Assembly: GCA_964542005.1 (NCBI GenBank)
Contig: CAZISX010000001.1
Location: 51,071-87,729, forward strand
Length of the DNA: 36,659 nt
Direction of reading: 5' to 3'
Source of the DNA: an uncultured Spirochaetales bacterium
GTDB lineage: Bacteria > UBP6 > UBA1177 > CALOFP01
The position numbers and the translations under genes are program-made. The notes under the pieces are model-generated. The model was not told the DNA's origin. It worked only from the letters and a program-made list of their open reading frames with translations, and did not search any database. This document shows, piece after piece, positions 4,837-36,659 of the stretch (the stretch's first letter is position 1; every line of letters begins with the position of its first letter).

Positions 4837-5478
4837 TTAGAACAACTCTCCATTTGAAAGTAGAAAATTGATTCTGACAAGTTCGTCATAAGAGGGGGTT
4901 TTTACTGAAAACGGGATTTTTCTTATCCGCGAATCATCTCTTGAAAATGGGAGCTCTGAATCTTCGCTAAAAAGATACTGTTTAAGGGCGACAGGTGTAT
5001 AAACAAAGATTTTGTCAGCGAAATCAGAGACTTGCCATTCATTTATCTTGTCGGCAATTTCATCAAAAAAGTTAAAACTGCTTCTTAATCTTACTCTTGA
5101 GCCTGCTCTTGATTTTCCCTTTGTTTTAAGGTAGGTAAGCTGCGATTTGCCCTGTTTTTTCCGTGTCATGTAGGCTGAAAGAACTTTGTGGTGAGTCATT
5201 TCGCATTTTTCAAAATAGCCGATTGAGCACGAATCTGCACGGAGCAGTATGATGAGATAGTTCGGTTTTATGGAAAGTTTTTCAAGTTCCTCAAAACTGG
5301 AGAAATTTCTATCAAAGTCTGGAAAAACCAGCGGAGGACGGAAAAGAATTTCTTCCTCACTTTTTTTTTCAGGGATTAGCCTGAAAATGTTTTTTTCAGA
5401 ATTGTAGTCTAAAATTCTGTTATTTATAAATGCACTTTTCAGCAGGATGGCACTGTCGCTATAATTAAGATAACTCAC
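4837..5478 (-). CDS. VLRF1-fold protein (Vms1/ANKZF1-like release-factor / putative peptidyl-tRNA hydrolase)
   Basis: GTG start 9 nt after the dgt stop, with no strong RBS, so it is probably translationally coupled. Three blocks are collinear with the Vms1/ANKZF1 VLRF1 domain as I recall it: 'LIILLRADSCSIGYF', 'HHKVLSAYMTRKKQGKSQ' (GxxQ = G110-Q113) and 'GKSRAGSRVRLRSSFNFF' against '..GHFAGA..', 'HKTFHRYTVRKKQGGSQS' and 'SAGSSLRRYNE'. This comes from memory of the family, not from a search. Confidence 0.55.
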   Translation of the reverse strand: MSYLNYSDSAILLKSAFINNRILDYNSEKNIFRLIPEKKSEEEILFRPPLVFPDFDRNFSSFEELEKLSIKPNYLIILLRADSCSIGYFEKCEMTHHKVLSAYMTRKKQGKSQLTYLKTKGKSRAGSRVRLRSSFNFFDEIADKINEWQVSDFADKIFVYTPVALKQYLFSEDSELPFSRDDSRIRKIPFSVKTPSYDELVRINFLLSNGELF

Positions 5479-12600: not shown

Positions 12601-13140
12601 TTATCCTTTTACGCTGAACGGCTTATAAGGCTTGTCTTTGTCGTTGGAAACATTTTTGAAAAGAGGTCGAACATTATTCTGAGGTGCTTTAGCTTCTTCT
12701 TTTGCTTCCGGCTGAGGAGGTGTTTTTTCCGGTTTTTCAGGAACAGCAACAGACTCTCCCGATTTTTGTTTGTGGGAAATTTCGTGCCATGCTTCTTTTA
12801 AACTCATAAAGATTTCAAGTGCTTCTTTAACCATTTTCGTGTCTTTTCTGATATTTGCATTTATAAGCCTATCCTGAATAAAACCGTAAAGATTAAAAAG
12901 ATTTCTTGAAATTTCACCGCCATTTTCCATATCAAGCATGTGTCCAAGCTCTGTAACAATTGCCTGAGCTTTTGTTATGTTGTAGTGAGTTTTTTCGTGG
13001 TTTTTCTCTTCAATGCAGAGTATAGCCCGATTCATAAATTTTATTCCGGCATCATACATCATAACAACAATTTCAATATTTGACTTTCCTTCTATCTCTC
13101 TTTTAAGATATTCGGTTTCAAAATCTCTTCCTTGAGCCAT
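12601..13140 (-). CDS. fliS: flagellar export chaperone FliS with P/K/E-rich C-terminal extension
   Basis: ATG 13140 lies 5 nt after GGAGG; the track's TTG 13152 overlaps the RBS. 'IVVMMYDAGIKFMNRAI', 'AQAIVTELGHMLDMENGGEISRNLFNLYGFI' and 'LKEAWHEI' are typical FliS. About 55 extra C-terminal residues follow. Confidence 0.85.
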   Translation of the reverse strand: MAQGRDFETEYLKREIEGKSNIEIVVMMYDAGIKFMNRAILCIEEKNHEKTHYNITKAQAIVTELGHMLDMENGGEISRNLFNLYGFIQDRLINANIRKDTKMVKEALEIFMSLKEAWHEISHKQKSGESVAVPEKPEKTPPQPEAKEEAKAPQNNVRPLFKNVSNDKDKPYKPFSVKG

Positions 13141-13155
13141 CTTAGCCTCCAATTA

Positions 13156-16100
13156 CTATTCGGTGGAAATTCCTAATTTCTGGGCAACCTGATTGCTTTG
13201 CTCCTGAAGTCTAGCAAGATTCTGCTCCATTGCATTGTACTTGTTTCGGAGGGTTTCCTCCCTTTTTGTCATTCGCTCTTCATATTGCTGATATTGTTCA
13301 TACATTGTTCTTAGTCGTTTGTCAATATAGCCATTGACTTTTGTCTGCTCTTTCAAAAAACCACCAGTTAGAATATAATCATTTACCTTGCCTTCAATTC
13401 TTCTTGCAAGTCCCTGTTCGCCTGCTACCTCAGAGCTTTTGCCAAAAAAAGTAAATATTTTGTCCTCATCTTTTTTAAGCACATCCATAAATTTGTAGTT
13501 TCGTTTTAGTTCTTCAACAATCTCTGCCTTGTACTCTTCTTCTGTCTGCTTTTCCGGATCGAACTGCTTAATAAGATAACCTTTTTTAGAATCCTCAAAA
13601 CCGCCAACAGAACCTGCCGTTATATTCAAATTAACAAGAATATCGTAGTCAGGATCTGCATTAAGCTGAGGCTTATTAGGCTCGCTTCTTAAAAAATCAT
13701 ACATATTTCTAATAGAGCTTTCTTCTCTTAATATCTTATAACTACTAAACTTTTTAAACTTAGACTGATAATCCTCAACCTCGGTTGCTGTTTTCATAGA
13801 ATCAAGTTTTTCCTGAGTAAGCGGCGTCAGATATTTTCTATCCTCCGTTGAAATTGTTGGCGGATTCAATATATCCAGCAGTTTGTTGTATTCAAGAATA
13901 AAATCAGCAATTGCATTTACAGCATCATCAGTTTTGTTATCAATCGTGATTGTAACCGCGGTACTTGAAGTTGACATCAGATTGAGCTCAACGCCGCCAA
14001 TTACATCATCAACCTTGTTACTTGTTCTTGTGTAAAAGACACCATCAACAGTAAATTCCGCATCATTTCCAAGATTTCCTGTACCTTTCTTAAGGCTTGA
14101 TTTTACTGCAAGTTCTCCAAAATAATCTCTGATTGTATTTGATGCCTGAGAAGCCTCATCAGTCATTATAAAAAGAGACTGAGTTCCTTCTGTTGTTGAA
14201 TTAACTGTGATTCCACCTTGACCGTCTGTTGTGACAAGCGCATTAGCCTTAACAGTTGTATTATTCATCATATATAAAGCAAAATTGAGAGCATTATATT
14301 CTGCGGTTGCGGTTGCGCCTGCCCCATTTGTGACCTGCGTTCCTGAAACAAAACCTAATTCAGCTGCATCCCCAGGCGTTACTTCAGTTATTGTAAAATC
14401 GCTATTAGCTCCTTGAGTACGATTAACAAAACGGATCTGATTTGTCCCTTCTTTAATTGCTGCAACCTGAATAGTACCGCTTGACCAGTTTGCATTTGTG
14501 TTCCATGCAGAAATAAAAGAATCAATATTTGTAATTGCGCTTCCTGAATTATTCGTCCAGGTATAACTATTTGTAATTCCATCAGTATTTACTGTAAATT
14601 GTGCTCCGGCAGCAATGCCGTCATTCCAGCTTAGTGCTAAAGGAGTTGAATTGTAGGCACCGCTTCCGATTGTTGCTGGAATTGTGATAGTTGCCTCCGA
14701 ACCAGTTCCCTTACTGAAGACAACAGTGTCTGAGCTGCGGTTTCCCGAAAGTGCCTGTCCCGTAATTGAACTTTCATTGTATGCGAGATTTAAGACCTGA
14801 AGCAGATTACTCGAATCATAAGTTCCGCCAAGCTCAATTTTTTCAAGATTTGTATCAACAGAATTTGGGTCAGCCTTCAAAACAAACTTATCGGAATTTG
14901 TATCATAATTGGCAATAACACCTGCGTTACTTGTATTAATTCTCTTTATCAGGTCATTGAGCGTATCTTTTGTAACATCAACATAAAGAGAAACCCCGTT
15001 TATTGAAAAAGTTCCGCTTGTCGGCGACTCGGAAAATCCGCCATCTTTTATAAAACTGTCAGGATCAATAGTTGCAGCGGCAGTTCCTGGATTCAAAGTT
15101 CCGCCATTAGCAATAGAAATCTTTGATAATGCTAGAAAATTAGTTGTATCGCCAGCATCTCCAAGCGTTATTGTTGTGTTGTAATAATTTTCATTCGCAG
15201 CAAGAATAAATCGGTCATTTGTTGAGTCATAACTTGCCGTAACCCCGGCACCAGAAGTATTTATGATTGACAAAACATCATTGACAGTTGCAGTTGTCAT
15301 GTCTCCAATCTTTACTTTGACTCCGTTAATTGTAAAAAAACCGCTCTTATCAGAAGCATATTCAAGTGAGCCGTTATTAAAACCAACACTCTCAAGTGTC
15401 TGATTTAAATCAATATTTGTATCAGCAACATCGCTGCCGCCCGTTATGGATGGATATATTCTGTCAAGTGTTCTAAGCTGCGAATTAACGCGCAAAGTTG
15501 AAGTTCCCACAGTCATCTGCTCGCCAGTTTTTGCGACCATAGAAACGCCTGGAAGCACGCCAGTTGTTGAATCATTCATTTTTGTTCTAAGAGTTGTAAG
15601 ACTTGCGTCAATCCACTTATCACTCATCTGGGTAACAGAGGTGAAATTTGGTGAATTTAAGCCAAGAAGTGCTTTTGCATTTCCGCTATTAAAAGTTATT
15701 CCTGTGGAAGAGTTGTCGTTGAGGTTATAAAAAGCAATTTTTTCGTTGCCTGTTCCATTAATTGCTTCGGCCTTAATCATTACGAAAGCAACATCAGTTG
15801 TCCCTTCCTGCGTATTTAGATAATCATTTATTTTCTTTTCCATATCTGCAGCAACCGACTTTAAAGAGGTCTGATTTGCAGCAGCATACTCAAGATTTAT
15901 TGAAAAAGTACGGCCATTTACCGTCATATTCAAATCAGAATTTGCACTTGTTATGGTTGAACCGATTGTTCCGTCAACTGTCGCAGATTCAATAACAGAG
16001 GTCTCGAATTTTCCCATCTGGCCGCCGCCATCTTTTTTATAAATCGCACTTGCTATATAATTTGCGCCCGCAGTTGTAACAGCAAGATCAACCTTTCCTT

Positions 16101-16515
16101 CAAAATTAGTGCTAGGTCTTCCCGCAATACTCTGTAAATTCATTGTGTTAGGAGGGCTGTTCAAAATTGTTGCTCTGGCATAGGTACTTTGAACTCTTGC
16201 AGGAACCGCCAAATTATTGACCTTGAGGGAATAGCTCCCTTTAACCGCAGTCATAGTTGCAGAACCAGTAGCAATACTTTCATCAGAAGAATTTAGTGTT
16301 TTATTTTTAAATGTTGACTCAAGTTTCAACTTTAAGGTCTTGTCCTTGAGCTTTTGCAGGTTTTTAATCTGCTCGTCAAGCACCTCTTTTTTCATATTTT
16401 GAAAATTCATCTGATCATTCAGCTTTGTCATAGGCTGTCGCTGAACCTCAAGAGACGCATTAATCAGGCCATCAATATCCATTCCTGAGATAACACCAGA
16501 AATTCTGTTTGGCAT
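13156..16515 (-). CDS. fliD: flagellar filament cap protein FliD (hook-associated protein 2), unusually long
   Basis: AGGAGG lies 5 nt upstream of ATG 16515. The N-terminus 'ISGVISGMDIDGLINASLEVQRQPMTKL' and the coiled-coil C-terminus ('AEFTVDGVFYTRTSNKVDDVIGGVELNL...', '...NKYNAMEQNLARLQEQ') match the FliD N and C domains. The 1119-aa length reflects a large S/T/N/G-rich central insertion. Confidence 0.9.
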   Translation of the reverse strand: MPNRISGVISGMDIDGLINASLEVQRQPMTKLNDQMNFQNMKKEVLDEQIKNLQKLKDKTLKLKLESTFKNKTLNSSDESIATGSATMTAVKGSYSLKVNNLAVPARVQSTYARATILNSPPNTMNLQSIAGRPSTNFEGKVDLAVTTAGANYIASAIYKKDGGGQMGKFETSVIESATVDGTIGSTITSANSDLNMTVNGRTFSINLEYAAANQTSLKSVAADMEKKINDYLNTQEGTTDVAFVMIKAEAINGTGNEKIAFYNLNDNSSTGITFNSGNAKALLGLNSPNFTSVTQMSDKWIDASLTTLRTKMNDSTTGVLPGVSMVAKTGEQMTVGTSTLRVNSQLRTLDRIYPSITGGSDVADTNIDLNQTLESVGFNNGSLEYASDKSGFFTINGVKVKIGDMTTATVNDVLSIINTSGAGVTASYDSTNDRFILAANENYYNTTITLGDAGDTTNFLALSKISIANGGTLNPGTAAATIDPDSFIKDGGFSESPTSGTFSINGVSLYVDVTKDTLNDLIKRINTSNAGVIANYDTNSDKFVLKADPNSVDTNLEKIELGGTYDSSNLLQVLNLAYNESSITGQALSGNRSSDTVVFSKGTGSEATITIPATIGSGAYNSTPLALSWNDGIAAGAQFTVNTDGITNSYTWTNNSGSAITNIDSFISAWNTNANWSSGTIQVAAIKEGTNQIRFVNRTQGANSDFTITEVTPGDAAELGFVSGTQVTNGAGATATAEYNALNFALYMMNNTTVKANALVTTDGQGGITVNSTTEGTQSLFIMTDEASQASNTIRDYFGELAVKSSLKKGTGNLGNDAEFTVDGVFYTRTSNKVDDVIGGVELNLMSTSSTAVTITIDNKTDDAVNAIADFILEYNKLLDILNPPTISTEDRKYLTPLTQEKLDSMKTATEVEDYQSKFKKFSSYKILREESSIRNMYDFLRSEPNKPQLNADPDYDILVNLNITAGSVGGFEDSKKGYLIKQFDPEKQTEEEYKAEIVEELKRNYKFMDVLKKDEDKIFTFFGKSSEVAGEQGLARRIEGKVNDYILTGGFLKEQTKVNGYIDKRLRTMYEQYQQYEERMTKREETLRNKYNAMEQNLARLQEQSNQVAQKLGISTE
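14782..15342 (-). repeat. tandem protein-level repeat inside fliD (two flagellin-hook 'IN'-type motifs)
   Basis: aa 392-468 'GFFTINGVKVKIGD..VNDVLSIINTSGAGVTASYDSTNDRFILAA' aligns with aa 501-578 'GTFSINGVSLYVDV..LNDLIKRINTSNAGVIANYDTNSDKFVLKA'. Shared residues are ING, ND, INTS-AGV-A-YD and D-F-L-A. Confidence 0.6.
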
Positions 16516-16561
16516 AATATCCTCCTAAAAAAGAGTTTATACAATTTTTCGGATTCAATTA

Positions 16562-16577
16562 TGCAATTGTCGTGCCT
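16562..16577 (-). promoter_or_regulatory. sigma54-type (-24/-12) promoter candidate upstream of fliD
   Basis: Minus strand reads AGGCAC-gacaa-TTGCA, against the consensus TGGCAC-N5-TTGCW. GG and GC have the correct 12-nt register. The element sits in the 85-bp pilZ-fliD spacer, ~47 nt upstream of the fliD ATG. Confidence 0.45.
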
Positions 16578-16600
16578 GATTTATGCCGGAAATTTGACGG

Positions 16601-16987
16601 TTAGTTTGCTTTTGAATCTGGCTGCTGGGAAGAGTTCCAGATAATATACTCTCTAAATTCTTTATCAATAAGGTCGGAATTACCATTGTTGTAGATAACA
16701 ATGTTGCGGAGGAGAATGAAAGTATCAAGTTCAATACCTTTAAACTGAACAGCAACACCTTCCGGTTCAATTCGCACAACATCTCCGGCAAGATTAAGAG
16801 ACATTTCTGAATTAACAGTGCTTAGATGGATAGTTGATTTGATTTCATCACCAATCTTAAAACCATCGGAAATATTGACAAACATGCCGTTAAGGCTGAG
16901 GTTACAAACCTCACCATGAAGATCTTTGTTTGCAGTCTTTATTTCAGCCTCGATTTTATAGCTAATTCTTGACATTCTTCTTTGCAC
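16601..16987 (-). CDS. single-domain PilZ protein (c-di-GMP receptor)
   Basis: GTG 16987 lies 4 nt after GAGGTGG. Both binding motifs are intact with normal spacing: 'RRMSR' (RxxxR, aa 3-7) and 'NLSLNG' (D/NxSxxG, aa 29-34). Confidence 0.85.
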   Translation of the reverse strand: MQRRMSRISYKIEAEIKTANKDLHGEVCNLSLNGMFVNISDGFKIGDEIKSTIHLSTVNSEMSLNLAGDVVRIEPEGVAVQFKGIELDTFILLRNIVIYNNGNSDLIDKEFREYIIWNSSQQPDSKAN

Positions 16988-25176: not shown

Positions 25177-25727
25177 CAGATATTCTCCATTAAGGTTTCT
25201 CGTAAATCTGTTATCATACCTTTTAGTGAGCCATCATATATTTTGTTGCCAATTTTCAAAAGAGCTCCTCCGAGAAGTGAATCATCTATTCTGGAATTTA
25301 TCCTGATTCTTTTCTCTGGAAAAATTTTTGACATTTTTTCTTTCACAAGCGTTATTTCTTCTTCAGAAAATTTAGATGCCGAAATCAGCTCTGCATCAAT
25401 AAAGCCAAGAGAGGCATCATAAAGTTTTCTGGTAAAAACAATAATTTCTTTTAAAGCAGGTGTTTTTCTGCGTTCAATTAGCAAATAGTATAGATTTGTT
25501 GCATATTCTGAGATATTGAGTTGTGCCACCAGTTCTTTGAAAACATTTTTTTTCTCATCTTCATAAAAAGCGGGAGAATATAGAAGCTCCCGAAGGTCAT
25601 CTGACGATTCAACAAGTTTTTCAAGCATCTCTAAATCTGCAAAAACCTTTAAAGCGTTGTTTTCATCAATTGTTTTCAAGGAGTTGAAGAGTGATTTGCT
25701 GTAAAGTGCTATAATTTCGTAGCTCAT
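25176..25727 (-). CDS. atpH: F1 ATP synthase delta (OSCP) subunit
   Basis: 183 aa in the canonical position between b and alpha. The C-terminus '[24 protein letters not shown]' is the OSCP signature. ATGA overlap with atpF. Confidence 0.85.
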
Positions 25728-26269
25728 TTTACATTACCTAAAAGTTCTATGAATTCCCGTTTTAAATCGTTTTTAGCAGTCTCATCAAGCTGTTTTGCTC
25801 TTTTTTCAACTTCAGTAATAAAGCTGTCAATAAACTCCAAAACAATAGACTCACGAAGAGAAACAATTTCTTCATTAAGCCTTTTTTCTGCATCTATTCT
25901 TATTGCGATAGCCTCATTCTTGGCTTTTTGAACTATATCTTTATAAAGAACTTCCCCTTTTTCTTCATAACTTTCCTCAATAGATTTCTTTTCCTCTTCA
26001 AGTTTGGAAATTTTCTCCTTGAGACTTCTTATTTCTGATTCTGCAAACTCATAATTTGATTTGTAGCGATTAAATTCTTCACGAATAGTCCGCTCTCTTT
26101 CTTCAAAAAAGGCCTTAATCTTCTTGCCAGCAAAATAAACAAGTATCCATGCAAAAAGTACAAAGTTAATAACTGCATACAAAAATGAAAGCCATGGATT
26201 TCCTCCGTGTTCGCCGCCAGAAGCAAAGATAAGCACAGGGCAACATATTATAAATATTAAGAATTTCAC
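25724..26269 (-). CDS. atpF: Fo ATP synthase subunit b
   Basis: GTG start overlaps the b' stop (GTGA). An extra N-terminal hydrophobic segment precedes the TM helix 'LSFLYAVINFVLFAWILVYFAG', followed by a long charged helix ('FFEERERTIREEF...'). Confidence 0.85.
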   Translation of the reverse strand: MKFLIFIICCPVLIFASGGEHGGNPWLSFLYAVINFVLFAWILVYFAGKKIKAFFEERERTIREEFNRYKSNYEFAESEIRSLKEKISKLEEEKKSIEESYEEKGEVLYKDIVQKAKNEAIAIRIDAEKRLNEEIVSLRESIVLEFIDSFITEVEKRAKQLDETAKNDLKREFIELLGNVK

Positions 26270-26691
26270 TTTACTCTCCAGAGCTTTTTGGTAATAAGAG
26301 AAACAAACTCATCACGCATCGTAATCATCTCTTTTTTTAACGATTCTGACGATTTTATTATCTCTCCCCTTTTCCTTTCCGCAAAAAGAATAGTTTTTTC
26401 CCGCTCTTCTGTCATAAAAAGACTCATTTCAGCAAGTGCCTCTGCCTTGCGGGAAGTTATGATTTTGATTCCTGATTTATGAGACAATTCTATCTGCTGT
26501 CTGTATTGTTCTTTTAATTCTCGGGATGTTGATTGAGAAGAGATTGCGTGTTTGTTTTCTTTGTTAAGTATTTCTTTCCGTTTCTCTAGCATTTTTTGAA
26601 CAGGTTTGATAATAAAACGGCTGCAGAAAATTAAAAAAAGGATAAACAATCCTGTTTGAATTACAAAAACAGTCAAATCAAAAGAAAGCAT
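26266..26691 (-). CDS. atpF2: Fo ATP synthase subunit b' (second b-type subunit)
   Basis: 'FDLTVFVIQTGLFILFLIFCSRFIIKPVQKMLEKRKEIL' is the typical b/b' N-terminus, followed by a charged helix. It lies directly upstream of b. Confidence 0.75.
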   Translation of the reverse strand: MLSFDLTVFVIQTGLFILFLIFCSRFIIKPVQKMLEKRKEILNKENKHAISSQSTSRELKEQYRQQIELSHKSGIKIITSRKAEALAEMSLFMTEEREKTILFAERKRGEIIKSSESLKKEMITMRDEFVSLITKKLWRVK

Positions 26692-26707: not shown

Positions 26708-27232
26708 TTATCTTTTATAAAATGATTTCTCAAAAAATATCTTGTCTGTATCTTCATCGGTAAGATGCCATAACTCTTTGATTTTTCTATTCATCTCCTC
26801 GGTGTAGCCTCTGGAGATATAGTATTGAATTCTGTCAAAAAAGGTCATCATTCTGCCGGTAAGCTCGCTAAGCTGCTGCATTTCGTAGCCTGTTTCGCTC
26901 ATAACTTCGCTTGTAGCATATTTTAGCACGGTAGCTCTTAGAAGAACTAGAGCTCGAAGAACTTCACAAAGAGGAATCTGCATTTTGAAAAACTTCATTC
27001 CCTCTTTTGCATAAATTCTCCCGATTTCCTCGGGATCAGCACCATAATTTATCCATTTTTCAAGCTCACCAAGAACAAGACGCGCTTTTTTCTCAATTTC
27101 TATAAGATTTTCTCTTGTAAAAGTTGAAGTTGTTTTGTCCGCAAGAACATTTCTTGTCCATTTCTGAAGAATCTGGCCAGCATTTTCTTCTATTAATTTG
27201 GCAAGTTTATTTGATAGTAAGCTTACTGTCAT
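26708..27232 (-). CDS. non-ATPase ORF in the atp operon; resembles the RsbR N-terminal / sensor-globin-like domain
   Basis: AAGGAA RBS 5-6 nt before ATG 27232. The gene starts 11 nt after atpE and ends 16 nt before b'. It is soluble and all-helical. 'LAKLIEENAGQILQKWTRNVL', 'IPLCEVLRALVLLRATVL' and 'RMMTFFDRIQYYISRGY' resemble the B. subtilis RsbRA N-domain pattern ('FIAENQNELLQLWTDTL', 'GLSMKFLATALAEFWKRLY', 'IDRFFSPINTEIFNQY'). The coding call is strong; the family call is tentative. Confidence 0.55.
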   Translation of the reverse strand: MTVSLLSNKLAKLIEENAGQILQKWTRNVLADKTTSTFTRENLIEIEKKARLVLGELEKWINYGADPEEIGRIYAKEGMKFFKMQIPLCEVLRALVLLRATVLKYATSEVMSETGYEMQQLSELTGRMMTFFDRIQYYISRGYTEEMNRKIKELWHLTDEDTDKIFFEKSFYKR

Positions 27233-27243
27233 ATTAGTTCCTT

Positions 27244-27558
27244 TTAAATTTTGCCGAAAAGCATGAACGCAATCAAAAGTGCATAAATAACCAGAGACTC
27301 AATAAAAGCAATTGCTAATATGAAAAGAAGCATTAATCTTTTTGATGTTTCCGGATTTCTTGCACTTCCTTCAATTGTTGCTGATGCAGCATGTCCCATA
27401 CCAATTCCGCCACCAAGAGCAGCAACTCCTATTGCAAAGCCAGCTCCTAAAGCAAGAAGACCTTTTTCAATAGAACCAGACGAGCCTGCTACAGCTTCCT
27501 GTGCAAAAAGCGGAGCCATCATAAGAAATGCTGAAATAAATCCAATAAACTTTTTCAT
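27244..27558 (-). CDS. atpE: Fo ATP synthase subunit c with signal-peptide-like N-terminal extension
   Basis: AAGGAGA lies 6 nt before the ATG. The hairpin core is 'GAGFAIGVAALGGGIGMGHAA...RNPE...LAIAFIESLVIYALLIAF', with the carboxylate in 'IES'. About 25 extra N-terminal residues, 'MKKFIGFISAFLMMAPLFAQEA', precede it. Confidence 0.9.
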   Translation of the reverse strand: MKKFIGFISAFLMMAPLFAQEAVAGSSGSIEKGLLALGAGFAIGVAALGGGIGMGHAASATIEGSARNPETSKRLMLLFILAIAFIESLVIYALLIAFMLFGKI

Positions 27559-28385: not shown

Positions 28386-28414
28386 TTGCCTAACAAAATC
28401 GCTAATGATATAAA
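28386..28414 (+). promoter_or_regulatory. sigma70-like promoter candidate for the HEAT/HD/pseudokinase operon
   Basis: TTGCCT (28386-28391), a 17-nt spacer, then TATAAA (28409-28414). It lies ~35 nt upstream of ATG 28450, in the divergent spacer shared with atpB. Confidence 0.35.
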
Positions 28415-28449
28415 TTGATAACCTCAAAATAACAGTGTGGAGAAATCTG

Positions 28450-30336
28450 ATGCAAAGTTGTTCCTCTTTGTCGGTTCAAAGTTTTTTAAAATGGCGAGAG
28501 CTTGAAAACAAACATAAAGAGGCACTGTTCCCTCTTGTTGAAAAAACATTTCAAACTTTTTTCAGAATTTACAAAACAATAAAAATTTACAGAATAGATA
28601 ATCCTATTTTTAAAAATCAGCTCTCTGAGTTTATTGATCTTTTAAATCATATTGAATTTGTTGATGGATTTTCTGTTGCTGTCAGGAAAACAGGTTTTTA
28701 TTTTTTGAACAAAGAACTTGAGCTGGATGATGAGGAGTTTAAGCCATTTCTTAGAATGATGGTTACAAACGGAATTAAGGAGATGTTTTTTGCAAAAGGG
28801 ATTGATGCACCTGAAATTACAAGATTTTTTCTTATAGCTCAGAGATTTATTGCCCACAACGATTCTGACTCCGATATTTTGAGCACTTCGTGGGATGCAG
28901 GGATTGAACACCTTATTTTTATTACAGATATGGAGTCAGGAGATTCTGAAAATTTTCAGGAATTTGATTTTGAAAACAAGTCTGAAATCAATAATCTGGA
29001 AGAAATTTTGCCAATACTCTCAAATGAACTAATTAATATTGCCTCCAGCTTAAAATCCTCTGACAACAAATCACTTGAAGCTCTCCGGCAGGATTTTGAA
29101 AATTATTCTGAGGAGTCTGTTATTTGTGCCTATTTTGAGAGGCTTAAAATCCAGATTCTTGATGATAAAAACAAAGATTCTATTGGCGAAGTCATTGAAA
29201 TTATTAGTTTCTTTCCTGACAGGCTTCTTAACTCCTCCTCTATTCAATATGGTGCGGCTTTTTTCAAATCGCTTCTAGCCCTGGAAAGTACACTTAAAAA
29301 AACAAAAAGCCAGTATGCTGGCGAAATCACTGCTATTATTACTAAAATTACGAGCAATGATTTTATTGACAACATATTTGTCCAGGCAAAGCATATAAAA
29401 CCCGAAAAATACAACTCTTTTGCGGAAATGATAGGAATTATGTCATCCTACAATTTTGCTAGAATATTTATAAATTCGACAAATCTTGACAGCAAGGATT
29501 TACGACTGGTTTTTCTTTCAGCGATTGCTGGAAATATGAAGGAAATCAGCGTAGTTAAGGAGCTTATTGAGAGTGATGACTGGAAGCTTGTAAGAAATGT
29601 GTTATATCTGCTTGAGCTATCAAAAAATGCTGATTTTCTGCCACTAATCAGAAAAATTATAAATCATCCAATAGAACAGGTTCGGGTTGAAGCAATCTCT
29701 GTTTTATCAAAATATTCTGTGGAAGAAGCTCTTCCTATGCTTGAAAAAGCTATTTCAAGCGAAAACAAAGAGGTTCGGGCTCTGGCGGTAAAAAAGCTAT
29801 CTTCTTTGGGCTCTTTTAGAGCAAAAGCAATTCTTGATAGAGTTTTCAGGCCTGCAAATCTCAACAATTTCACAGCTGACGAGATTGAAGATTTTATAAA
29901 AATTGTTGCTGGCTCGGCAAACAGAGAGCTTTTTGACCTTGTCGGAAATCTTCTTTTTTATCAGAACAAAGAAATTAGAATTCGCTCAATGAAATACATC
30001 AAAAGACTTGGCAGTTCTGAAACGCTTTCAAGAATTGTTCTGAAAAAGATTTCTGATGAAGATTTTTTTAAAACAGAAAAAGATGAACTAACTGAATTTG
30101 TTAAGTTATTTGTTCCTGAAATTTTTGAAGACATACTTCCTGCTCTTGAAAAAATATGGACTCTTAAAGGTGGACTTTTTAACAGACATCAATTCATCGA
30201 AACAAAAAAAATAGTTATCTCTCAACTGATGATGTTCAAAACAAATATCAATATTGTCCGCTGGGTTTCCAAAGCTTTGAAATCTGGAGATGAGGAAACA
30301 ATCTCCATTATAAACAGTTTCAAGGAGAATAACTAA
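28450..30336 (+). CDS. HEAT-repeat protein whose N-terminal module is shared with the downstream gene
   Basis: I prefer ATG 28450, 6 nt after GGAGA, over the track's GTG 28435. HEAT/PBS-lyase-type repeats are present: 'DDWKLVRNVLYLLELSKNADFLPLIRKIINHPIEQVRVEAISVLSKY..EALPMLEKAISSENKEVRALAVKKLSSLGS'. The rest is helical, with no catalytic motif seen. Confidence 0.8.
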   Translation: MQSCSSLSVQSFLKWRELENKHKEALFPLVEKTFQTFFRIYKTIKIYRIDNPIFKNQLSEFIDLLNHIEFVDGFSVAVRKTGFYFLNKELELDDEEFKPFLRMMVTNGIKEMFFAKGIDAPEITRFFLIAQRFIAHNDSDSDILSTSWDAGIEHLIFITDMESGDSENFQEFDFENKSEINNLEEILPILSNELINIASSLKSSDNKSLEALRQDFENYSEESVICAYFERLKIQILDDKNKDSIGEVIEIISFFPDRLLNSSSIQYGAAFFKSLLALESTLKKTKSQYAGEITAIITKITSNDFIDNIFVQAKHIKPEKYNSFAEMIGIMSSYNFARIFINSTNLDSKDLRLVFLSAIAGNMKEISVVKELIESDDWKLVRNVLYLLELSKNADFLPLIRKIINHPIEQVRVEAISVLSKYSVEEALPMLEKAISSENKEVRALAVKKLSSLGSFRAKAILDRVFRPANLNNFTADEIEDFIKIVAGSANRELFDLVGNLLFYQNKEIRIRSMKYIKRLGSSETLSRIVLKKISDEDFFKTEKDELTEFVKLFVPEIFEDILPALEKIWTLKGGLFNRHQFIETKKIVISQLMMFKTNINIVRWVSKALKSGDEETISIINSFKENN

Positions 30337-30337
30337 G

Positions 30338-31804
30338 ATGACAAAAAATAAAAGAGAACAAAAAATCAGAGATATTTCACCAACCAGGCTTAGAGAAATT
30401 GAGCGAAAAAAGAAAAAATATGAGTTTGCCAAATCATTTTTTATTCTCTGGAAAGCAGCCAGAATGCACAATCTTGAAAACACTTCTTTCAAAGAGCTGC
30501 TTGAGGTTTTTATAGAAAATGCAGAATATCTTTTTGACTGGGCTGGCGGCATTACACTCAGCTTTGACGGAAATTCTATTAAAATCAATGACTTGGTTCT
30601 ACGAGGGCTTAGAAAAGAGGATGAATATCTTGATCATCTTGCAGAAATGATGCTTTCAATCGCTGTTGCTGAAATAATATTTCCAAAAGGAATAGAAGAA
30701 AAAAACATTGTAGAATTTCTTACAATTATTAAGGATTACTCGATTGAAGAGAAGCCTGACATTAAGATTTTTAATGAGATACAGCAAGTGCTTGCAAACC
30801 GTGAATCAAGAATCAGAATAATTTCTTATATTCCAGAAGAGCTGGCATTGCCAAGACTTTTTTCAAAAGCAGAATCCGCAAGAGAACTTTACAAAAAAAT
30901 GATTGAGGATTATAGCTCTGTCCAAATAAGTGTCGAAGAAAATGAGCCTGTTCCGCTGAAAGACGCGGTAAGAAATATTCAGAAACTTATTGATTTTATT
31001 AAAGATAGCTCTAAAGACAGTCAGTTTTACCATTTTCTTTTTTTAGCTACTCTCTCTGATTACAGGGCAGGCCGCATTGCATCTCATTCCACAAATACAG
31101 CTATTCTTTCCTGCATGATTGGGGTTAAGGCTGGCCTTGACAGACGAACTCTGAAATTACTTGTTTTATCCGCATATCTGCACGATGCCGGAATTGGTGA
31201 GATATTGGAACATGATATGGCAATTGACCATCTCGGTCATACAGAAAAAGGATTTAAGAGCTTAAGTAGAATGAATATTTTTAGAATAGAACATGTTTAC
31301 GCTTCAATTTGTGCAGCCTCGCATCATGATTATTACGATTTTGATGCAAGTATTTTAGAGACAACCAGTTGTTTATATTCGGGAATATTTGAGCAAATTG
31401 TTAGAATTGCCGATTTTTACGATTTAGCAACCCGTTACTGGCCTGAAATCAATAGTTCCAAAATGAGCCGAATTGCAGCATTATGCAAGATATTTGAAAA
31501 CACAAAAACCAATATTTTTAGAAAAGAGACGGCAGATGCAATGCTTTCTGTTTTGGGAATTTTTCCTCCCGGCTCGATTTTAAAAATCCAAAACGAAAAC
31601 TTATTTGCAGTTCCATATAAAGAAGTCTTTTCAACAACAGAAAAGGTTCCGTGTTTTGTTTTGGACAACAAACTTTCTTTTATCAGAAAAGATGAAATTG
31701 ATGCAACCTTACTGTTCGATTTTGAACAAAGCTCAAAACTTCACCTTCCATCCGCAACAACCTCTCTTTTACTAAATATGATTTATGAACAATATAACAA
31801 ATAG
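30338..31804 (+). CDS. HD-domain protein of HD-GYP type lacking the GYP motif
   Basis: Starts 1 nt after the upstream stop, with AAGGAG upstream. HD-type ligands are present: H250, 'LHDAGIG' (H282-D283), H301, 'SHHD' (H329-H330) and 'RIADFYDLATRYWP'. 'HHDYYDFDAS' replaces the HHExxDGxGYP signature. Confidence 0.7.
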   Translation: MTKNKREQKIRDISPTRLREIERKKKKYEFAKSFFILWKAARMHNLENTSFKELLEVFIENAEYLFDWAGGITLSFDGNSIKINDLVLRGLRKEDEYLDHLAEMMLSIAVAEIIFPKGIEEKNIVEFLTIIKDYSIEEKPDIKIFNEIQQVLANRESRIRIISYIPEELALPRLFSKAESARELYKKMIEDYSSVQISVEENEPVPLKDAVRNIQKLIDFIKDSSKDSQFYHFLFLATLSDYRAGRIASHSTNTAILSCMIGVKAGLDRRTLKLLVLSAYLHDAGIGEILEHDMAIDHLGHTEKGFKSLSRMNIFRIEHVYASICAASHHDYYDFDASILETTSCLYSGIFEQIVRIADFYDLATRYWPEINSSKMSRIAALCKIFENTKTNIFRKETADAMLSVLGIFPPGSILKIQNENLFAVPYKEVFSTTEKVPCFVLDNKLSFIRKDEIDATLLFDFEQSSKLHLPSATTSLLLNMIYEQYNK

Positions 31805-31806
31805 AA

Positions 31807-32766
31807 ATGACTGAAGAAACCGTACAAAAAATACTATCTGTCAGAGATATTGACGCAGGCAATACTCACACCTGGGATGAAGTTCTGGCTATCGCAATAA
31901 AAATTGCAGAAACACTAAATGCAATATATGGCAGAGAAAAAAGAGCAATAATAAATATCAGACCAGAATCTGTTTTTATCGAAAATGAGCGGATAAAAAT
32001 TGACTATTTTGAACATGAAACAAGCTGTGAAATATCGCATCATCAAACAGTAAAGGACGCTTACGAAGATTCTGCTTTTCTGGCACCGGAAGTTTCTGAT
32101 GGAGAAATCGGTTTTTACTCTGATATTTATTCTCTAGGAGGCGTTTTTTATATACTTTTTGGTGGTGATGAAGCTGATATTATTGAGGATAATGAGAATC
32201 TTGAATTCCCAGGGAAAATGCACAATCAGCTTCAGAGACTAATCCTCCAAATGCTTTCTCCTGATAAAGAAAAACGGCCAGATATTATCAAAGTTATTAA
32301 AAAACTCAGGGAAATCAAATATCACAGAGAGCATGTTTCTGTTGTTGGAAAGAGTTTTGTTTTGTTCTTTTTGATTGTCCTTCTTTTTGCATCAGGATTG
32401 AAGCTTTTTATTCAATATGATGTTCCAAATGTCAAAAGTGATGTAAACAGACTTGAGTTTCTGGTTGATGTTTTTACAACTTTGGATTCTGATCCCAAAA
32501 AAATTCCACAGGTTTTTGAGAAGAACTTCTTAAACGAACCGCTAAAAATCAAAGTAAAAGCTCTTGATGAAAAAAATTATGAGGCACAGACACCTGTGAA
32601 AATTGAGAACTCTACAATCAGCAACTTGAATATTTCAATTATTCAAAATGGAATATGGGCTTCTCCGGATTTATGTTCAGGAGCAGGAAAAACATATAAA
32701 TGCTCAGGTATTATGAAAAAAAATTCCGATGAAATGCTGATTTATTCAATATATCCGGCTAAATAA
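31807..32766 (+). CDS. membrane-anchored Ser/Thr-kinase-like pseudokinase (C-lobe only)
   Basis: Starts 2 nt after the upstream stop. 'AIINIRPESVFI' aligns to the HRDLKPEN catalytic loop with HRD changed to IIN and N changed to S. 'KIDYFE' stands for DFG. 'FLAPEV', 'SDIYSLGGVFYILFGG' and 'LSPDKEKRPD' are conserved C-lobe motifs. There is no Gly-loop, VAIK Lys or alpha-C region. A TM helix (aa ~183-203) is followed by a ~115-aa tail. Confidence 0.65.
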   Translation: MTEETVQKILSVRDIDAGNTHTWDEVLAIAIKIAETLNAIYGREKRAIINIRPESVFIENERIKIDYFEHETSCEISHHQTVKDAYEDSAFLAPEVSDGEIGFYSDIYSLGGVFYILFGGDEADIIEDNENLEFPGKMHNQLQRLILQMLSPDKEKRPDIIKVIKKLREIKYHREHVSVVGKSFVLFFLIVLLFASGLKLFIQYDVPNVKSDVNRLEFLVDVFTTLDSDPKKIPQVFEKNFLNEPLKIKVKALDEKNYEAQTPVKIENSTISNLNISIIQNGIWASPDLCSGAGKTYKCSGIMKKNSDEMLIYSIYPAK

Positions 32767-35235
32767 ACAAATTCACATTCGCAGCCTCAGCATTTTCCAG
32801 ATAACTCGCAACGCCGCCGATTGTAACTCCTTCCATCAACTCCTCTTTTTGGACACCCATTACATCCATTGACATCTGACATGCAACAAGTTCAATGCCA
32901 CTTTTTAATGCTGCGGCAATAAGTGACTCGAGCGAATCAACCTTCTTATCCGCCATCCGCTTTCTCATCATTATTGTGCCAAGCCCGAACATATTCATTT
33001 TGGAGAGTTTGAGATTTAGTGATGAGGAAGCCATCATCATGCCAAACATTTTGGACATAAAATCTTTTTTGAGTGCCGGTTTTTCCACTTTTTTGATAAC
33101 ATTCAGTCCCCAGAATGTGAAAAACATTGTAACTTTTTTGCCCATACTTGCTGCGCCATTTGCAATGACAAAACCCGCGAGAGCTTTATCCAGATCGTCA
33201 GAAAAAATAACCAGAGTCTTGCCATCAGCTCTTTCAACAAGCTGATTTTTCTCATTTTTTGCAGATTTTTCAATCAGAGCTGTAATTTTTCCCTTCTCAT
33301 TTTTGATTGATAACAGCTTGTTGCCTGTAACCCTGCACCACGATTCAGAATCTTTTTTAAACCCCTGATCTGTCGCTGTTATCTCGATTAAAGTTCCGAC
33401 AGAAGCTTTTTCCATCTCTTTTTTAAGCTGCATAATCGGGCCTGGACACTGCAAACCGCACGCATTTACCTCAATCTTACTTGCCACAACCTGTTCGGAT
33501 TTCGCACTGTTTTCCCTAGGTTCTGACTGATAAATCATATCATCTTTCCCAATAAAATCATTTTTGAAAATATCCTCATTTGACTGTTTCTGGGTTGCAT
33601 GCTCCCATGTTTTGTAGCGGCCGGAAAGATTGAAAACATTAGCACATCCGAGCTGTAGCAAAATTCTCGAAGCAACATAACCTCGCAAACCAACGCCGCA
33701 GAAAAGGAGTATCTCCTTATCTTTCGGGATTTCATTAATCCTGCTTCTTATTTCATCAAGAGGAATATTTTTCGCACCTTCAATTGTGCCGAGTGCGAAC
33801 TCATCCGTGGTTCTCACATCAATCAGGCAGTGGCTCTCTTTTGTCGTGTTTTTAATATCGTACCACTGAACAACTTTTGTCCGTCCTTTTAAAATATTTT
33901 CAGCCGCAAAACCTGTTATATTTGTTATATCTTTTGCCGAAGCATAAGGCGGCGCGTAGGCGTGCTCAATATCCTGAAGATCATAAACCGTGCCGTTGTT
34001 TTTTATCACGGTCGCAAAAAGATCAATCCTCTTGTCAACACCGTCAAAACCCACAATCTGAGCACCAAGCAACCTCCCATTTTCAGGAGAAAAAACAATT
34101 TTCACACTCATCGCAAGAGCATCGGGATAGTATCCAGCATGGGATGATGGATGGATAATTAGCGTTTTGTATGGAATACTCAGTGTTTTCAATAGCTTTT
34201 CCGAAACTCCGGCTGAAGCTACGGTTAAATCAAACACTTTTGCAATTGCAGTATTTATCGAGCCTATATATTTTGTGGTGTTGCCGAAAACAATGTTGTC
34301 AGCAACAATTCTTCCCTGTTTGTTTGCCGGCCCTGCCAGATAAGTTATTGTTTTCTTTTGAGTTATAGGGTTTGTAAATTCAATAGCATCGCCAAGCGCG
34401 TAAATATCAGGATCGCTTGTCTGGAGAAATGAACAGAAATACCGCCAGTTTCACCAATCTCAAGCCCACCATTTTTAGCAAGCGAGCTTTCGGGTCTGAC
34501 TCCGATTGAAAGAATCACGATATCTGCCGGAATTGTCTTTGAATTTGAAAGAGTTACCATAATTCTGCCAGATTCTTTTGCAAACGAGGAAACACCGCTG
34601 CCGAGATAAAATTCGACATCCTTGCTTTTGAGATGCTGGTGAACCTCTGCTGCCATTTCGTAATCAAGCGGAGTCATAACCTGATCTGCAGCCTCGACAA
34701 TTGTTGTTAAAATTCCGGCATTGTGAAGGTTTTCAGCCATTTCAAGCCCAATAAAACCAGCACCAACAATCACAGCTTTTTTCGGTTTTTTCTCATCAAT
34801 ATACTTTTTGATTCTGTCAGTGTCGGGAACATTTCTTAAAGTAAAAATCCCCTCCTCATTAATTCCTGGAATCCTCGGGCGGAGCGGTTCCGCGCCTGGC
34901 GACAAAATCAGTTTGTCGTAAGTTTCCCAATAAATTTCACCGGTTTCAAGATTTTTAACCTCAACTTTTTTAGCAGCTTTATCAATCGAAACAACCTCAC
35001 TTAAAGCCCTGACAACAACATTAAATCTGGCGTTGAAACTCTCGGGTGTTTGAACAAAAAGATTGGCTCTTTCCTTAATAGTTCCGCCAACATAGTAGGG
35101 AAGTCCACAGTTTGCGTAGCTGATATATTCCCCTCTTTCAAACATAATAATTTCAGCAGATTCATCAAGCCTTCTAAGCCTGGCAGCAGTTGTCGCGCCA
35201 CCCGCAACACCGCCGACAATCAAATATTTCGCCAT
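32759..35235 (-). pseudogene. multidomain CoA-disulfide/persulfide reductase (FAD oxidoreductase-rhodanese-TusA-DsrE-like), reading frame broken by a 1-nt frameshift
   Basis: The N-terminal piece (35235..34363) has 'LIVGGVAGGATTAARL' and the redox Cys context 'SYANCGLPYY'. The downstream frame, open from ~34465, continues 'LQTSDPDIYALGDAIEF...', which is the expected next motif. It then carries the rhodanese motif 'LLFCGVGLRGY', the TusA motif 'ACGLQCPGPI' and the DsrE-like segment 'LVIFSDDLDKALAGFVIANGAA'. The track ORFs 34363..35235 and 32759..34237 are two halves of one ~825-aa gene. Confidence 0.8.
34427..34429 (-). other. probable frameshift site (homopolymer)
   Basis: The coding strand reads GGT ATT TCT GTT CAT TTC TCC AGA. 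Adding one T to the TTT run gives ...GTT CAT TTT CTC CAG ACA AGC GAT CCT = GGISVHFLQTSDPDIY, which joins the two frames. The neighbouring run at 34437-34439 is an alternative site. Confidence 0.5.
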
Positions 35236-35674: not shown

Positions 35675-36659
35675 TTAAAACCCTTCAACCTCAACGGCCT
35701 GAAATCTTTTTGTGTCTGCATCAAACGAAATGCCAAGCATGAATTTTTCTCTTGAATCAGTTTTGTAAGGTTCGGCATAACCCTTTTCTTTGATTTGAGC
35801 AATCGCATCACCAGCAGTTTTCGGCATCATTTTAAATTCAAGAACATACAAATAACTATCTGTTTTTATTACAGCATCAACCCGACCTTCGCTGGTTGAA
35901 ACTTCGCATTCAATATAAATTCCAATCATCTTAAGAATCAGAAAAATCAAAGAATGATAGTAAGCCTCTGTATTTTTTATGAAAATCTGGTGCGGAATTG
36001 AGGAGAAAAGAGCGTTTATGTTTTTCTGGAAATCGTTGATATTATTCTGCTCCAAAGCTCTTAAAAGATTTTTTGTTATCTGGCCGGTTGAGCTGATTTC
36101 TTTGCCCGATAAACCGCAGAGCAGATGACCGGAAAACGAATCTCTAACCTCTTTATTCGGATAATCCAAGATAAAGAAGCCGTATTTATCCTTCTCTTTT
36201 ATTGTAAGATAACCTGTTTGAAACATTAGAGCTTTTATATCCATCTCTCGCAAATCAAACTTGTCAAAAAAGATTGAGTCAACCTCTGTTTTTTCCAGTT
36301 CCTCCGGCGTTACTCCATTATCTCTTATAAAATTAACTAGAAAAGTCGGCGTGCCTGTTGCAAACCAGTAGTTGCTGAATTTATATGAACTGAAAAAACT
36401 GAGTAAAGAGAAAGGGTTATAAACCCGATCCTCTTCATTCCACGAATAGCCGTTGTACCAAATTTTAAGCTCTGAAAAAAGCTCCTCTTCTGTTACTTTA
36501 AGTTTTTCTAAAGCTATTTTTATATAGTCTGTAAATTCTTTTTTTATCTCTTCCTCAGTAATTCCAACAATTTGGCTATAATCTGGATGTGTTGTTATAT
36601 CAAGAAGATTATTCAGCTCAGAAAAAATACTCACTTTGGAAAACTTTGTAACCCCTGTC
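35675..36659 (-). CDS. AAA-ATPase_like / PD-(D/E)XK (PDDEXK_9, DUF1703-type) protein, 3' part (5' end outside window)
   Basis: The frame stays open to the window edge: upstream of the track's GTG it reads 'TGVTKFSKVSIFSELNNL', a conserved block of this family. The C-terminus is the nuclease-fold module: 'YYHSLIFLILKMIGIYIECEVSTSEGRVDAVIKTDSYLYVLEFK...AIAQIKEKGYAEPY'. Confidence 0.85.
   Translation of the reverse strand, partial: TGVTKFSKVSIFSELNNLLDITTHPDYSQIVGITEEEIKKEFTDYIKIALEKLKVTEEELFSELKIWYNGYSWNEEDRVYNPFSLLSFFSSYKFSNYWFATGTPTFLVNFIRDNGVTPEELEKTEVDSIFFDKFDLREMDIKALMFQTGYLTIKEKDKYGFFILDYPNKEVRDSFSGHLLCGLSGKEISSTGQITKNLLRALEQNNINDFQKNINALFSSIPHQIFIKNTEAYYHSLIFLILKMIGIYIECEVSTSEGRVDAVIKTDSYLYVLEFKMMPKTAGDAIAQIKEKGYAEPYKTDSREKFMLGISFDADTKRFQAVEVEGF

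Follow-up and report, generated by a model that had tools for sequence, protein, structure and literature searches.

Within a 36,659-nucleotide (nt) stretch of DNA from an uncultured Spirochaetales bacterium (assembly GCA_964542005.1, contig CAZISX010000001.1, positions 51,071 to 87,729; hereafter the window), we analyzed a group of three open reading frames, termed g1, g2 and g3, which all lie on the + strand and are separated by gaps of 1 nt (g1/g2) and 2 nt (g2/g3). An original prediction made from the sequence had described this arrangement, which is borne out by the open reading frames and by public gene calls of the same contig (JGI metagenome 3300020048) listing the identical three genes, and had read it as an undescribed signalling module in which a membrane pseudokinase docks onto a HEAT-repeat scaffold and an HD-type protein. 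We are confident that g1 and g2 form a conserved pair; g3 stands outside this unit. The start codon of g1 is an ATG with GGAG 6 nt 5' of it (an alternative GTG lies at 28435), g2 has an AAGGAGA ribosome-binding site 9 nt 5' of its start, and the g3 start lacks an obvious Shine-Dalgarno sequence. The genes and the parts of g1 and g2, with residues counted in amino acids (aa), are as follows.

28450-30336, + strand: g1, 628-aa non-catalytic partner protein consisting of an N-terminal domain (N-domain), a helical stretch in the middle and HEAT-like repeats (open reading frame, ribosome-binding site, HEAT_2 match, pairing with g2)
28507-28944, + strand: N-domain of g1 (aa ~20-165), a paralogue of the g2 N-domain (BLASTP, hhalign and hidden Markov model (HMM))
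29512-29889, + strand: HEAT-like repeats of g1 (aa ~355-480; Pfam HEAT_2 and HEAT, profile matches to alphaRep entries of the PDB)
30338-31804, + strand: g2, 488-aa putative HD-GYP-derived metal phosphohydrolase lacking GYP (HMMER relatives, AlphaFold2 (AF2) model, Foldseek)
30380-30832, + strand: N-domain of g2 (aa ~15-165), in which two long helices precede a small alpha/beta unit (AF2 model)
30950-31537, + strand: HD domain of g2 (aa ~205-400) with ligands H250, H282, D283, H301, H329, H330 and D359 (profile alignment to PmGH, 4mcw; column counts)
31550-31801, + strand: C-terminal beta-rich domain of g2, from the GIFPPGS motif on (alignments, secondary structure of the model)
31807-32766, + strand: g3, 319-aa orphan membrane protein containing a kinase C-lobe only (Pfam Pkinase, PDB alignments)

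Word-indexed protein searches with the single g1, g2 and g3 sequences returned the query itself only. Relatives of g2 were collected by an exhaustive HMMER search, yielding 17 full-length proteins at E<1e-30 and 387 at E<1e-3, and an alignment of an eight-sequence subset was searched against GTDB genomes and JGI metagenomes, resulting in 70 loci at which g1 and g3 were sought with tblastn and family HMMs, g3 additionally with phmmer. A few contigs that occur in both collections (L002 and L040 are an example) are part of the locus counts. All relatives stem from uncultured organisms, and taxon labels are those of the metagenome-assembled genome (MAG) records. A g1-family gene lies directly upstream of g2 and on the same strand in each of the 50 other g2-family loci with upstream DNA (46 distinct g2 sequences), and the six loci without a g1 match are all contigs ending in or just before g2. 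The g1/g2 junction in the window's clade spans -3 to +4 nt, being mostly a 4-nt overlap of the ATGA type. The same pair is found in a sister clade, comprising MAGs labelled Verrucomicrobia and Nitrospirales together with soil contigs, with the Verrucomicrobia-type g1 matching the g1 profile at an hhalign probability of 98.5%. A more distant branch of mostly canonical HD-GYP proteins was probed with the representatives P0020, P0025, P0026, P0033 and P0068; all five have a g1-family gene upstream (603-738 aa, HMM E 1e-15 to 4e-34), whose overlap with the HD-GYP gene measures 4-17 nt. Three further representatives, P0034, P0056 and P0065 (1393-1795 aa), are fusions consisting of a g1-like N-domain, HEAT repeats, a g2-like N-domain and an HD domain, and thus hold both N-domains within one chain. 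These fusion proteins also carry a further N-terminal region of 260-610 aa, the genomic context of P0034 being L076 5001-9182.

Overall, the pair occurs in MAGs labelled UBP6, 'Spirochaetales', Sumerlaeota, Verrucomicrobia and Nitrospirales, where source records name its members merely 'HD domain-containing protein' or 'hypothetical protein'. No family model describes the pairing, and a literature search combining HD-GYP and HEAT repeat found nothing relevant; partner protein, shared N-domain and obligate operon are absent from the HD-GYP survey by Galperin & Chou (bioRxiv 10.1101/2021.11.05.467447) and from the literature searched. g1 and g2 are linked by obligate co-occurrence and co-translation.

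Both proteins of the pair open with a related domain of ~150 aa that has no relative of solved structure. BLASTP aligns g1 14-133 with g2 17-134 (27% identity, E 3e-7), hhalign relates the two family profiles across 112 columns (E 2e-5), and an HMM of the g1 N-domain recognises more than 50 g2-type proteins by their N-termini, as well as both N-domains of each fusion protein. Of the 150 best cluster representatives, about 115 contain this domain, and they derive from MAGs placed in several phyla. Modelled alone with AF2 (aa 1-175, 30 sequences), the g2 N-domain reaches a predicted local distance difference test score (pLDDT) of 92.6 and a predicted template modelling score (pTM) of 0.85. A Foldseek search of this domain against the PDB gave no significant match (best E 0.5), with a few GAF domains appearing among the non-significant matches only (E at least 0.5). 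No Pfam model matches the domain either, and an assignment to DUF3391 or DUF3369 was rejected, as Pfam matches are missing and the order of secondary structure elements differs. A weak BLAST segment relates g1 328-376 to g2 236-293 (E 0.077), and the possibility that g1 is a full-length, degenerate g2 paralogue was rejected because profile-profile alignment supports the N-domain only.

In size, one-chain order and possession of an uncharacterised N-terminal domain, g2 resembles the Bd1817 family, in which DUF3391 precedes HD-GYP and the N-terminal domain has been suggested to promote the dimeric form (Galperin & Chou, bioRxiv 10.1101/2021.11.05.467447). However, DUF3391 is built of four beta strands followed by two helices, whereas in the g2 N-domain two long helices come first. 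Pfam finds no PF11871 (DUF3391) match among g2 family members, and a HEAT partner is not described for Bd1817 proteins.

The HEAT-repeat assignment of g1 made in the original prediction is well supported, with PF13646 (HEAT_2) matching aa 374-455 at E 2e-17 and 63.5 bits, above the cut-off of 27.7, and with the g1 family profile matching designed HEAT-like alphaRep proteins in the PDB (E 2e-11). Over these repeats g1 is similar to both alphaRep and the HEAT proteins of the PBS-lyase type (NblB, CpcE/F). Its match to NblB nevertheless falls far below the family cut-off (25 bits versus 300) and, unlike NblB and CpcE/F, g1 possesses the additional N-domain that it shares with HD-GYP proteins and never occurs in a phycobilisome context.

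By sequence, g2 yields a weak, sub-threshold HD match only (Pfam, E 1e-3). Its full AF2 model (pLDDT 85.8) is more informative: the top nine Foldseek matches in the PDB are all HD-GYP proteins (4mcw, 4r8z, 9rbz, 9rc0; probability 0.96-1.00), the best being PmGH (4MCW/4MDZ), PA4781 (4R8Z) and DvhD (9RBZ), which likewise have an N-terminal regulatory domain ahead of the catalytic one and share the H..HD..H..HH..D ligand positions with g2. Residues were mapped by aligning the g2 family profile to PmGH (4mcw), and columns were counted over 47 sequences, 42 of which make up the window's clade. All seven core metal ligands of HD-GYP proteins are present in g2. PmGH H189, H221, D222, H250, H276 and H277 correspond to g2 H250, H282, D283, H301, H329 and H330, invariant in 42/42 clade sequences, and PmGH D305 corresponds to D359, kept in 41/42 (one Ile), at an overall identity of only ~30%. 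g2 appears to descend from HD-GYP phosphodiesterases and to work like them.

The residues surrounding these ligands are a different matter. The third-metal glutamate E185 of PmGH is replaced by R246 in g2, the clade reading R, M, Y or F and never an acidic residue, and K225 by I286 (I or L in the clade). The loop after HD, from D283 to H301, has 14-19 residues in the clade compared with 28 in canonical relatives and contains no KPG. Downstream, g2 reads H329-H-D-Y-Y-D-F-D-A-S-I, and GYP is found in none of the clade sequences, whereas sister clade and distant branch do have it. R314 of PmGH corresponds to W368, a tryptophan invariant in 42/42; P369 is kept, and variable residues occupy the positions of Y316 and K317, so that RxY[K/R] is not matched. 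KPG, the tyrosine of GYP and R314-K317 are the c-di-GMP (cyclic di-GMP) contacts in PmGH, with KPG in the post-HD loop binding the second guanine and RxxK setting specificity (Galperin & Chou, bioRxiv 10.1101/2021.11.05.467447). Compared with solved HD-GYP proteins, g2 thus lacks the E185-type ligand and the KPG loop, carries HHDYYDFDAS for HHExhDGxGYP and W-P-E-I for RxY[K/R], has an N-domain that is not GAF, REC or PAS, and is always encoded alongside a HEAT-repeat partner. Because it departs from the family in three sequence features (KPG, GYP and RxY[K/R]), we refer to g2 as HD-GYP-derived and not as a member.

Most of the N-domain-bearing representatives (the ~115 mentioned above) keep GYP and the arginine, which points to the window's clade being a derived branch whose metal site seems to be strongly constrained and whose nucleotide pocket seems to have been rebuilt. 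A precedent for a specificity change via the R314-K317 pair is provided by HD-GYP variants preferring cyclic GMP-AMP (cGAMP), namely V-cGAPs and RxxQ/RxxN 'GAP' enzymes. Within the sister clade, L031, L033 and L061-L063 keep GYP and read R-x-x-Q instead of RxY[K/R], a variant linked to hydrolysis of cGAMP rather than c-di-GMP (bioRxiv 10.1101/2021.11.05.467447). Unlike these, the window's clade has lost the arginine itself along with GYP and the KPG loop, a change far more radical than in any characterised cGAMP enzyme.

The third gene of the locus behaves differently from g1 and g2. The following parts were recognised in g3.

31867-32307, + strand: remnant of a kinase C-lobe (aa 21-167) with a degenerate catalytic loop (Pfam, PDB alignments)
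32353-32418, + strand: predicted transmembrane helix (aa 183-204) with basic residues N-terminal of it (Kyte-Doolittle)
32422-32763, + strand: C-terminal tail of 114 aa with a predicted extracellular location, without a family match (profile searches, hydropathy)

Pfam Pkinase aligns to g3 only with profile positions 95-258 of 263, corresponding to the C-lobe (aa 21-164). An in-frame stop lies four codons (12 nt) 5' of the ATG, too close for an in-frame N-lobe, and no N-lobe (Gly-rich loop, beta3 Lys, alphaC Glu) was found elsewhere in the window. Alignment to solved kinases places I48-I49-N50-I-R52-P-E-S55 opposite H-R-D-L-K-P-E-N, so HRDxKxxN is not matched: the catalytic Asp is replaced by Asn50, Lys168 by Arg52 and Asn171 by Ser55. 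Conserved are the Asp of DFG (D66-Y-F), APE (93-95), DIYSLG (106-111; DxWSxG) and KRP (156-158; the subdomain XI Arg). Hydropathy peaks at aa 183-204 (19-residue Kyte-Doolittle window, maximum 2.68), and no such segment is present in g1 or g2. Bacterial receptor kinases have the order kinase, transmembrane helix, extracellular tail. Hanks-type receptor Ser/Thr kinases of the PknB kind thus share with g3 this order as well as APE, DxWSxG and the subdomain XI Arg, yet g3 differs from Hanks-type kinases and pseudokinases in lacking any N-lobe, in the replaced catalytic Asp, Lys and Asn, and in having no relatives. Known pseudokinases normally retain both lobes.

Relatives of g3 were found at none of ~60 related loci (tblastn E<0.01; phmmer with filters off), and a database of 5.8 billion proteins held none beyond the query; a metagenome scan with g3 gave no match, although it did not return the source contig itself either. 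Among the ~60 loci, only two other organisms have a kinase domain in the vicinity of the pair, neither being specifically g3-like: in L072/L073 a full-length Pkinase-AAA_16-TPR gene follows the pair on the same strand, and in L003 the opposite strand carries a kinase gene 2 kb upstream. A kinase as recurrent neighbour of the pair was rejected accordingly. The gene 3' of g2 is not constant: depending on the sub-lineage, it encodes a BcrAD-type activase or a lipoprotein bearing D-T-G repeats, or is an OsmC or GT2 gene on the opposite strand. The lipoprotein, of ~440 aa, comes directly after g2 in nine window-clade loci (L009 7417-8742, L014 3043-4374, L022 5231-6406 and six more) and combines a long (D/N)-T-G tripeptide repeat with a Cys-rich region, without a Pfam match. 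Base composition and codon usage of g3 resemble those of its neighbours (codon usage correlation 0.90), unlike what would be expected of a recent import. Matches of g3 to PADLOC and NCBIfam models (MkoA, MADS6, PD-T4-6, PglW) reflect generic kinase-domain likeness far under the cut-offs, and an anti-phage defence system was rejected as an explanation for the locus, these databases giving only generic kinase-domain and HEAT likeness far below cut-offs. g3 lies outside the conserved g1-g2 unit and is a lineage-specific gene in a variable slot after g2. Since it has no relatives and kinases are not recurrent at the pair, g3 is either a recent, lineage-specific recruit serving as a partner or membrane anchor, or a PknB-type receptor kinase reduced to its C-terminal half and decaying.

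Set against the original prediction, profile annotation and fold matching uphold the domain content described for all three genes, including an HD-GYP-type fold without GYP in g2 (structure match, absent motif) and, in g3, a C-lobe alone with mutated catalytic loop, a transmembrane helix and a long tail. Its view that each component looks like a pseudo-enzyme or adaptor does not hold for g2 as judged by its residues, since it keeps seven metal ligands and has lost the nucleotide-contact motifs only. The functionally linked, undescribed module survives for g1 and g2, always adjacent and in some lineages fused, and is lost for the trio: the three genes had been expected to be syntenic across genomes, a lack of synteny elsewhere having been named as the finding that would speak against them, and the neighbourhood search recovered g3 at 0 other loci. 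Nothing beyond gene adjacency supports docking of g3 on g1 and g2.

We favour, at slightly better than even confidence, the reading that g1 and g2 are a conserved two-subunit unit with a hydrolase whose target is probably not c-di-GMP, and that g3 is excluded from it. The related sequences of their N-domains suggest that the two proteins would form a complex through pairing of these paralogous domains and, by analogy, this pairing might constitute a pseudo-dimer mimicking the homodimer of ordinary HD-GYP enzymes. g1 would be the non-catalytic subunit, with its HEAT repeats as a regulatory or targeting arm recruiting a target or a regulator, and the hydrolase of the window's clade may, judging from its ligands, still bind metals and cleave a phosphoester. 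Several points weigh against this reading. Whether the substrate of g2 in the window's clade differs from c-di-GMP is an evenly balanced call, the sole ground for a difference being the loss of motifs, and HdgA, which has RxxS, still cleaves c-di-GMP, some HD-GYP proteins tolerating motif changes (bioRxiv 10.1101/2021.11.05.467447). Of the 17 nearest cluster representatives, five (P0010, P0013, P0015, P0017 and P0018) have lost metal ligands, so that part of the family can dispense with catalysis. Lastly, the 2-nt gap and host-like codon usage of g3 are compatible with co-expression and a real local role. A bolder form, in which the pair represents an unrecognised class of heterodimeric nucleotide-signal hydrolases with a new dimerisation or sensor domain and, in the window's clade, a site rebuilt for a substrate other than c-di-GMP, g3 having been captured in this one lineage as a localisation or input subunit, appears unlikely; in that case the substrate might be cGAMP, an alarmone, or some different oligonucleotide, either cyclic or linear.

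The HD-GYP fold and full metal-ligand set of g2 would also suit a divergent but ordinary c-di-GMP phosphodiesterase with g1 as an accessory, and distant paired members with canonical KPG, GYP and RxY (P0022, P0025) as well as the PilZ and HDOD proteins encoded in the genome fit such an enzyme. Throughout the window's clade, however, the KPG loop, the Tyr of GYP and Arg314/Lys317 are missing or replaced, and the invariant Trp in place of Arg314 points to selection for a different pocket, so we consider this explanation very improbable. Signalling by protein-protein contacts, with g2 as a metal, redox or nucleotide receptor and g1 as adaptor, would make the pair non-catalytic in the manner of inactive HD-GYP proteins (some of the RpfG family), which have degenerate signature motifs and act through partner proteins. 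HD-GYP domains are known from regulatory contacts between proteins, the close relatives P0013, P0015, P0017 and P0018 persist without the HD and HH residues, and the fusion proteins are also devoid of GYP. The comparison is nevertheless inverted, as inactive RpfG-family proteins lose ligands and keep GYP, whereas g2 keeps ligands and loses GYP, and six ligands in 42/42 sequences with a seventh in 41/42, at ~30% identity, are hard to explain without a selected metal site. We regard a non-catalytic pair as improbable.

For g3, two further explanations diverge. It could be a non-functional relic, a PknB-like receptor kinase that lost its N-lobe by deletion and persists as its C-terminal half, as its missing N-lobe, replaced catalytic Asp, Lys and Asn, lack of relatives and receptor-kinase architecture would suggest. 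Against decay, a frame of 319 codons is still open in DNA of 35% G+C, g3 retains APE, DxWSxG and the subdomain XI Arg, and it is tightly packed against g2; a relic is in our view possible, at less than even confidence. Conversely, all three proteins could act as one transmembrane device, with g3 sensing outside the cell and docking on a cytoplasmic g1/g2 scaffold. Its start 2 nt after g2 without a separate ribosome-binding site, a predicted N-in topology placing the kinase-like part in the cytoplasm, its host-like codon usage and the kinase gene directly following the pair in the distant relative L072 are in keeping with such a device. We give it little credence: g3 is missing from all other loci and databases searched, the two kinases near the pair among ~60 loci are not g3-like and one is on the opposite strand, and unrelated genes fill the slot 3' of g2 elsewhere.

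The surroundings of the three genes were inspected as well. On the opposite strand 5' of g1 lies an F-type atp operon, whose first gene atpB shares a 191-nt spacer with g1, and 3' of g3 a convergent sulfur-transferase/CoA-disulfide-reductase gene overlaps the g3 end by 8 nt. One candidate start signal was read in the spacer.

28386-28414, + strand: weak sigma-70-like element, TTGCCT-17 nt-TATAAA with TG 5' of the -10 (read from the sequence; unproven)

The original prediction had given the genes their own promoter-like element, and this motif exists; a consensus scan, however, reported no promoter on the + strand of the spacer and found 15 promoter-like sites in the region compared with 16.4 expected from shuffled sequence, i.e., no excess over chance. 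No riboswitch or other Rfam family matched the spacer 5' of g1. A link between the pair and the atp operon was rejected, as tblastn placed atpB near the pair in no other locus, and the adjacency to atpB is incidental.

Several other genes were recorded in passing. Inside the F-type ATP synthase operon, a 174-aa open reading frame without Pfam match (26708-27232, -) sits between the c-subunit gene (27244-27558) and two consecutive b-type subunit genes (26266-26691, 25724-26269). The CoA-disulfide-reductase/rhodanese/TusA/DsrE fusion gene at 32759-35235 (-) has a single frameshift near 34240-34400, with its ...TSDPDIYALGD motif continuing in another frame, and is a pseudogene or reflects an assembly error. 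FliS and a free-standing PilZ-domain gene flank a FliD of unusual length (1119 aa), with an HDOD-domain protein further upstream (12601-16987, -, and 3590-4807, +); from the PilZ and HDOD genes it follows that the organism has c-di-GMP effector-type proteins. A bVLRF1-type release-factor-like protein (4837-5478, -) and a PD-(D/E)XK (PDDEXK_9) protein (35675-36634, -) are both unrelated to the pair. Outside the window, large STAND-type signalling proteins adjoin the pair in two different lineages: in one, a Pkinase-AAA_16-TPR (STAND-type) protein of 1221 aa comes next on the pair's own strand (L072 6448-10113, GCA_021776775.1), and in the other a Guanylate_cyc-AAA_16-TPR protein is convergent with it (L080 2028-5060).

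The pair is of moderate interest to the second-messenger field, and the notion of a three-gene 'module' ought not to be carried forward as a system. Of the two classes of c-di-GMP phosphodiesterases, HD-GYP enzymes are less well understood, and a large subfamily that is always accompanied by a HEAT partner sharing its N-domain points to an obligate two-subunit enzyme, which single-chain surveys of HD-GYP architectures do not capture. Being confidently modelled and having no solved relative, the N-domain is a target for structure determination, and also for ligand screening. Since the window's clade keeps the metal centre and drops every c-di-GMP contact, it is a place to look for a new substrate.

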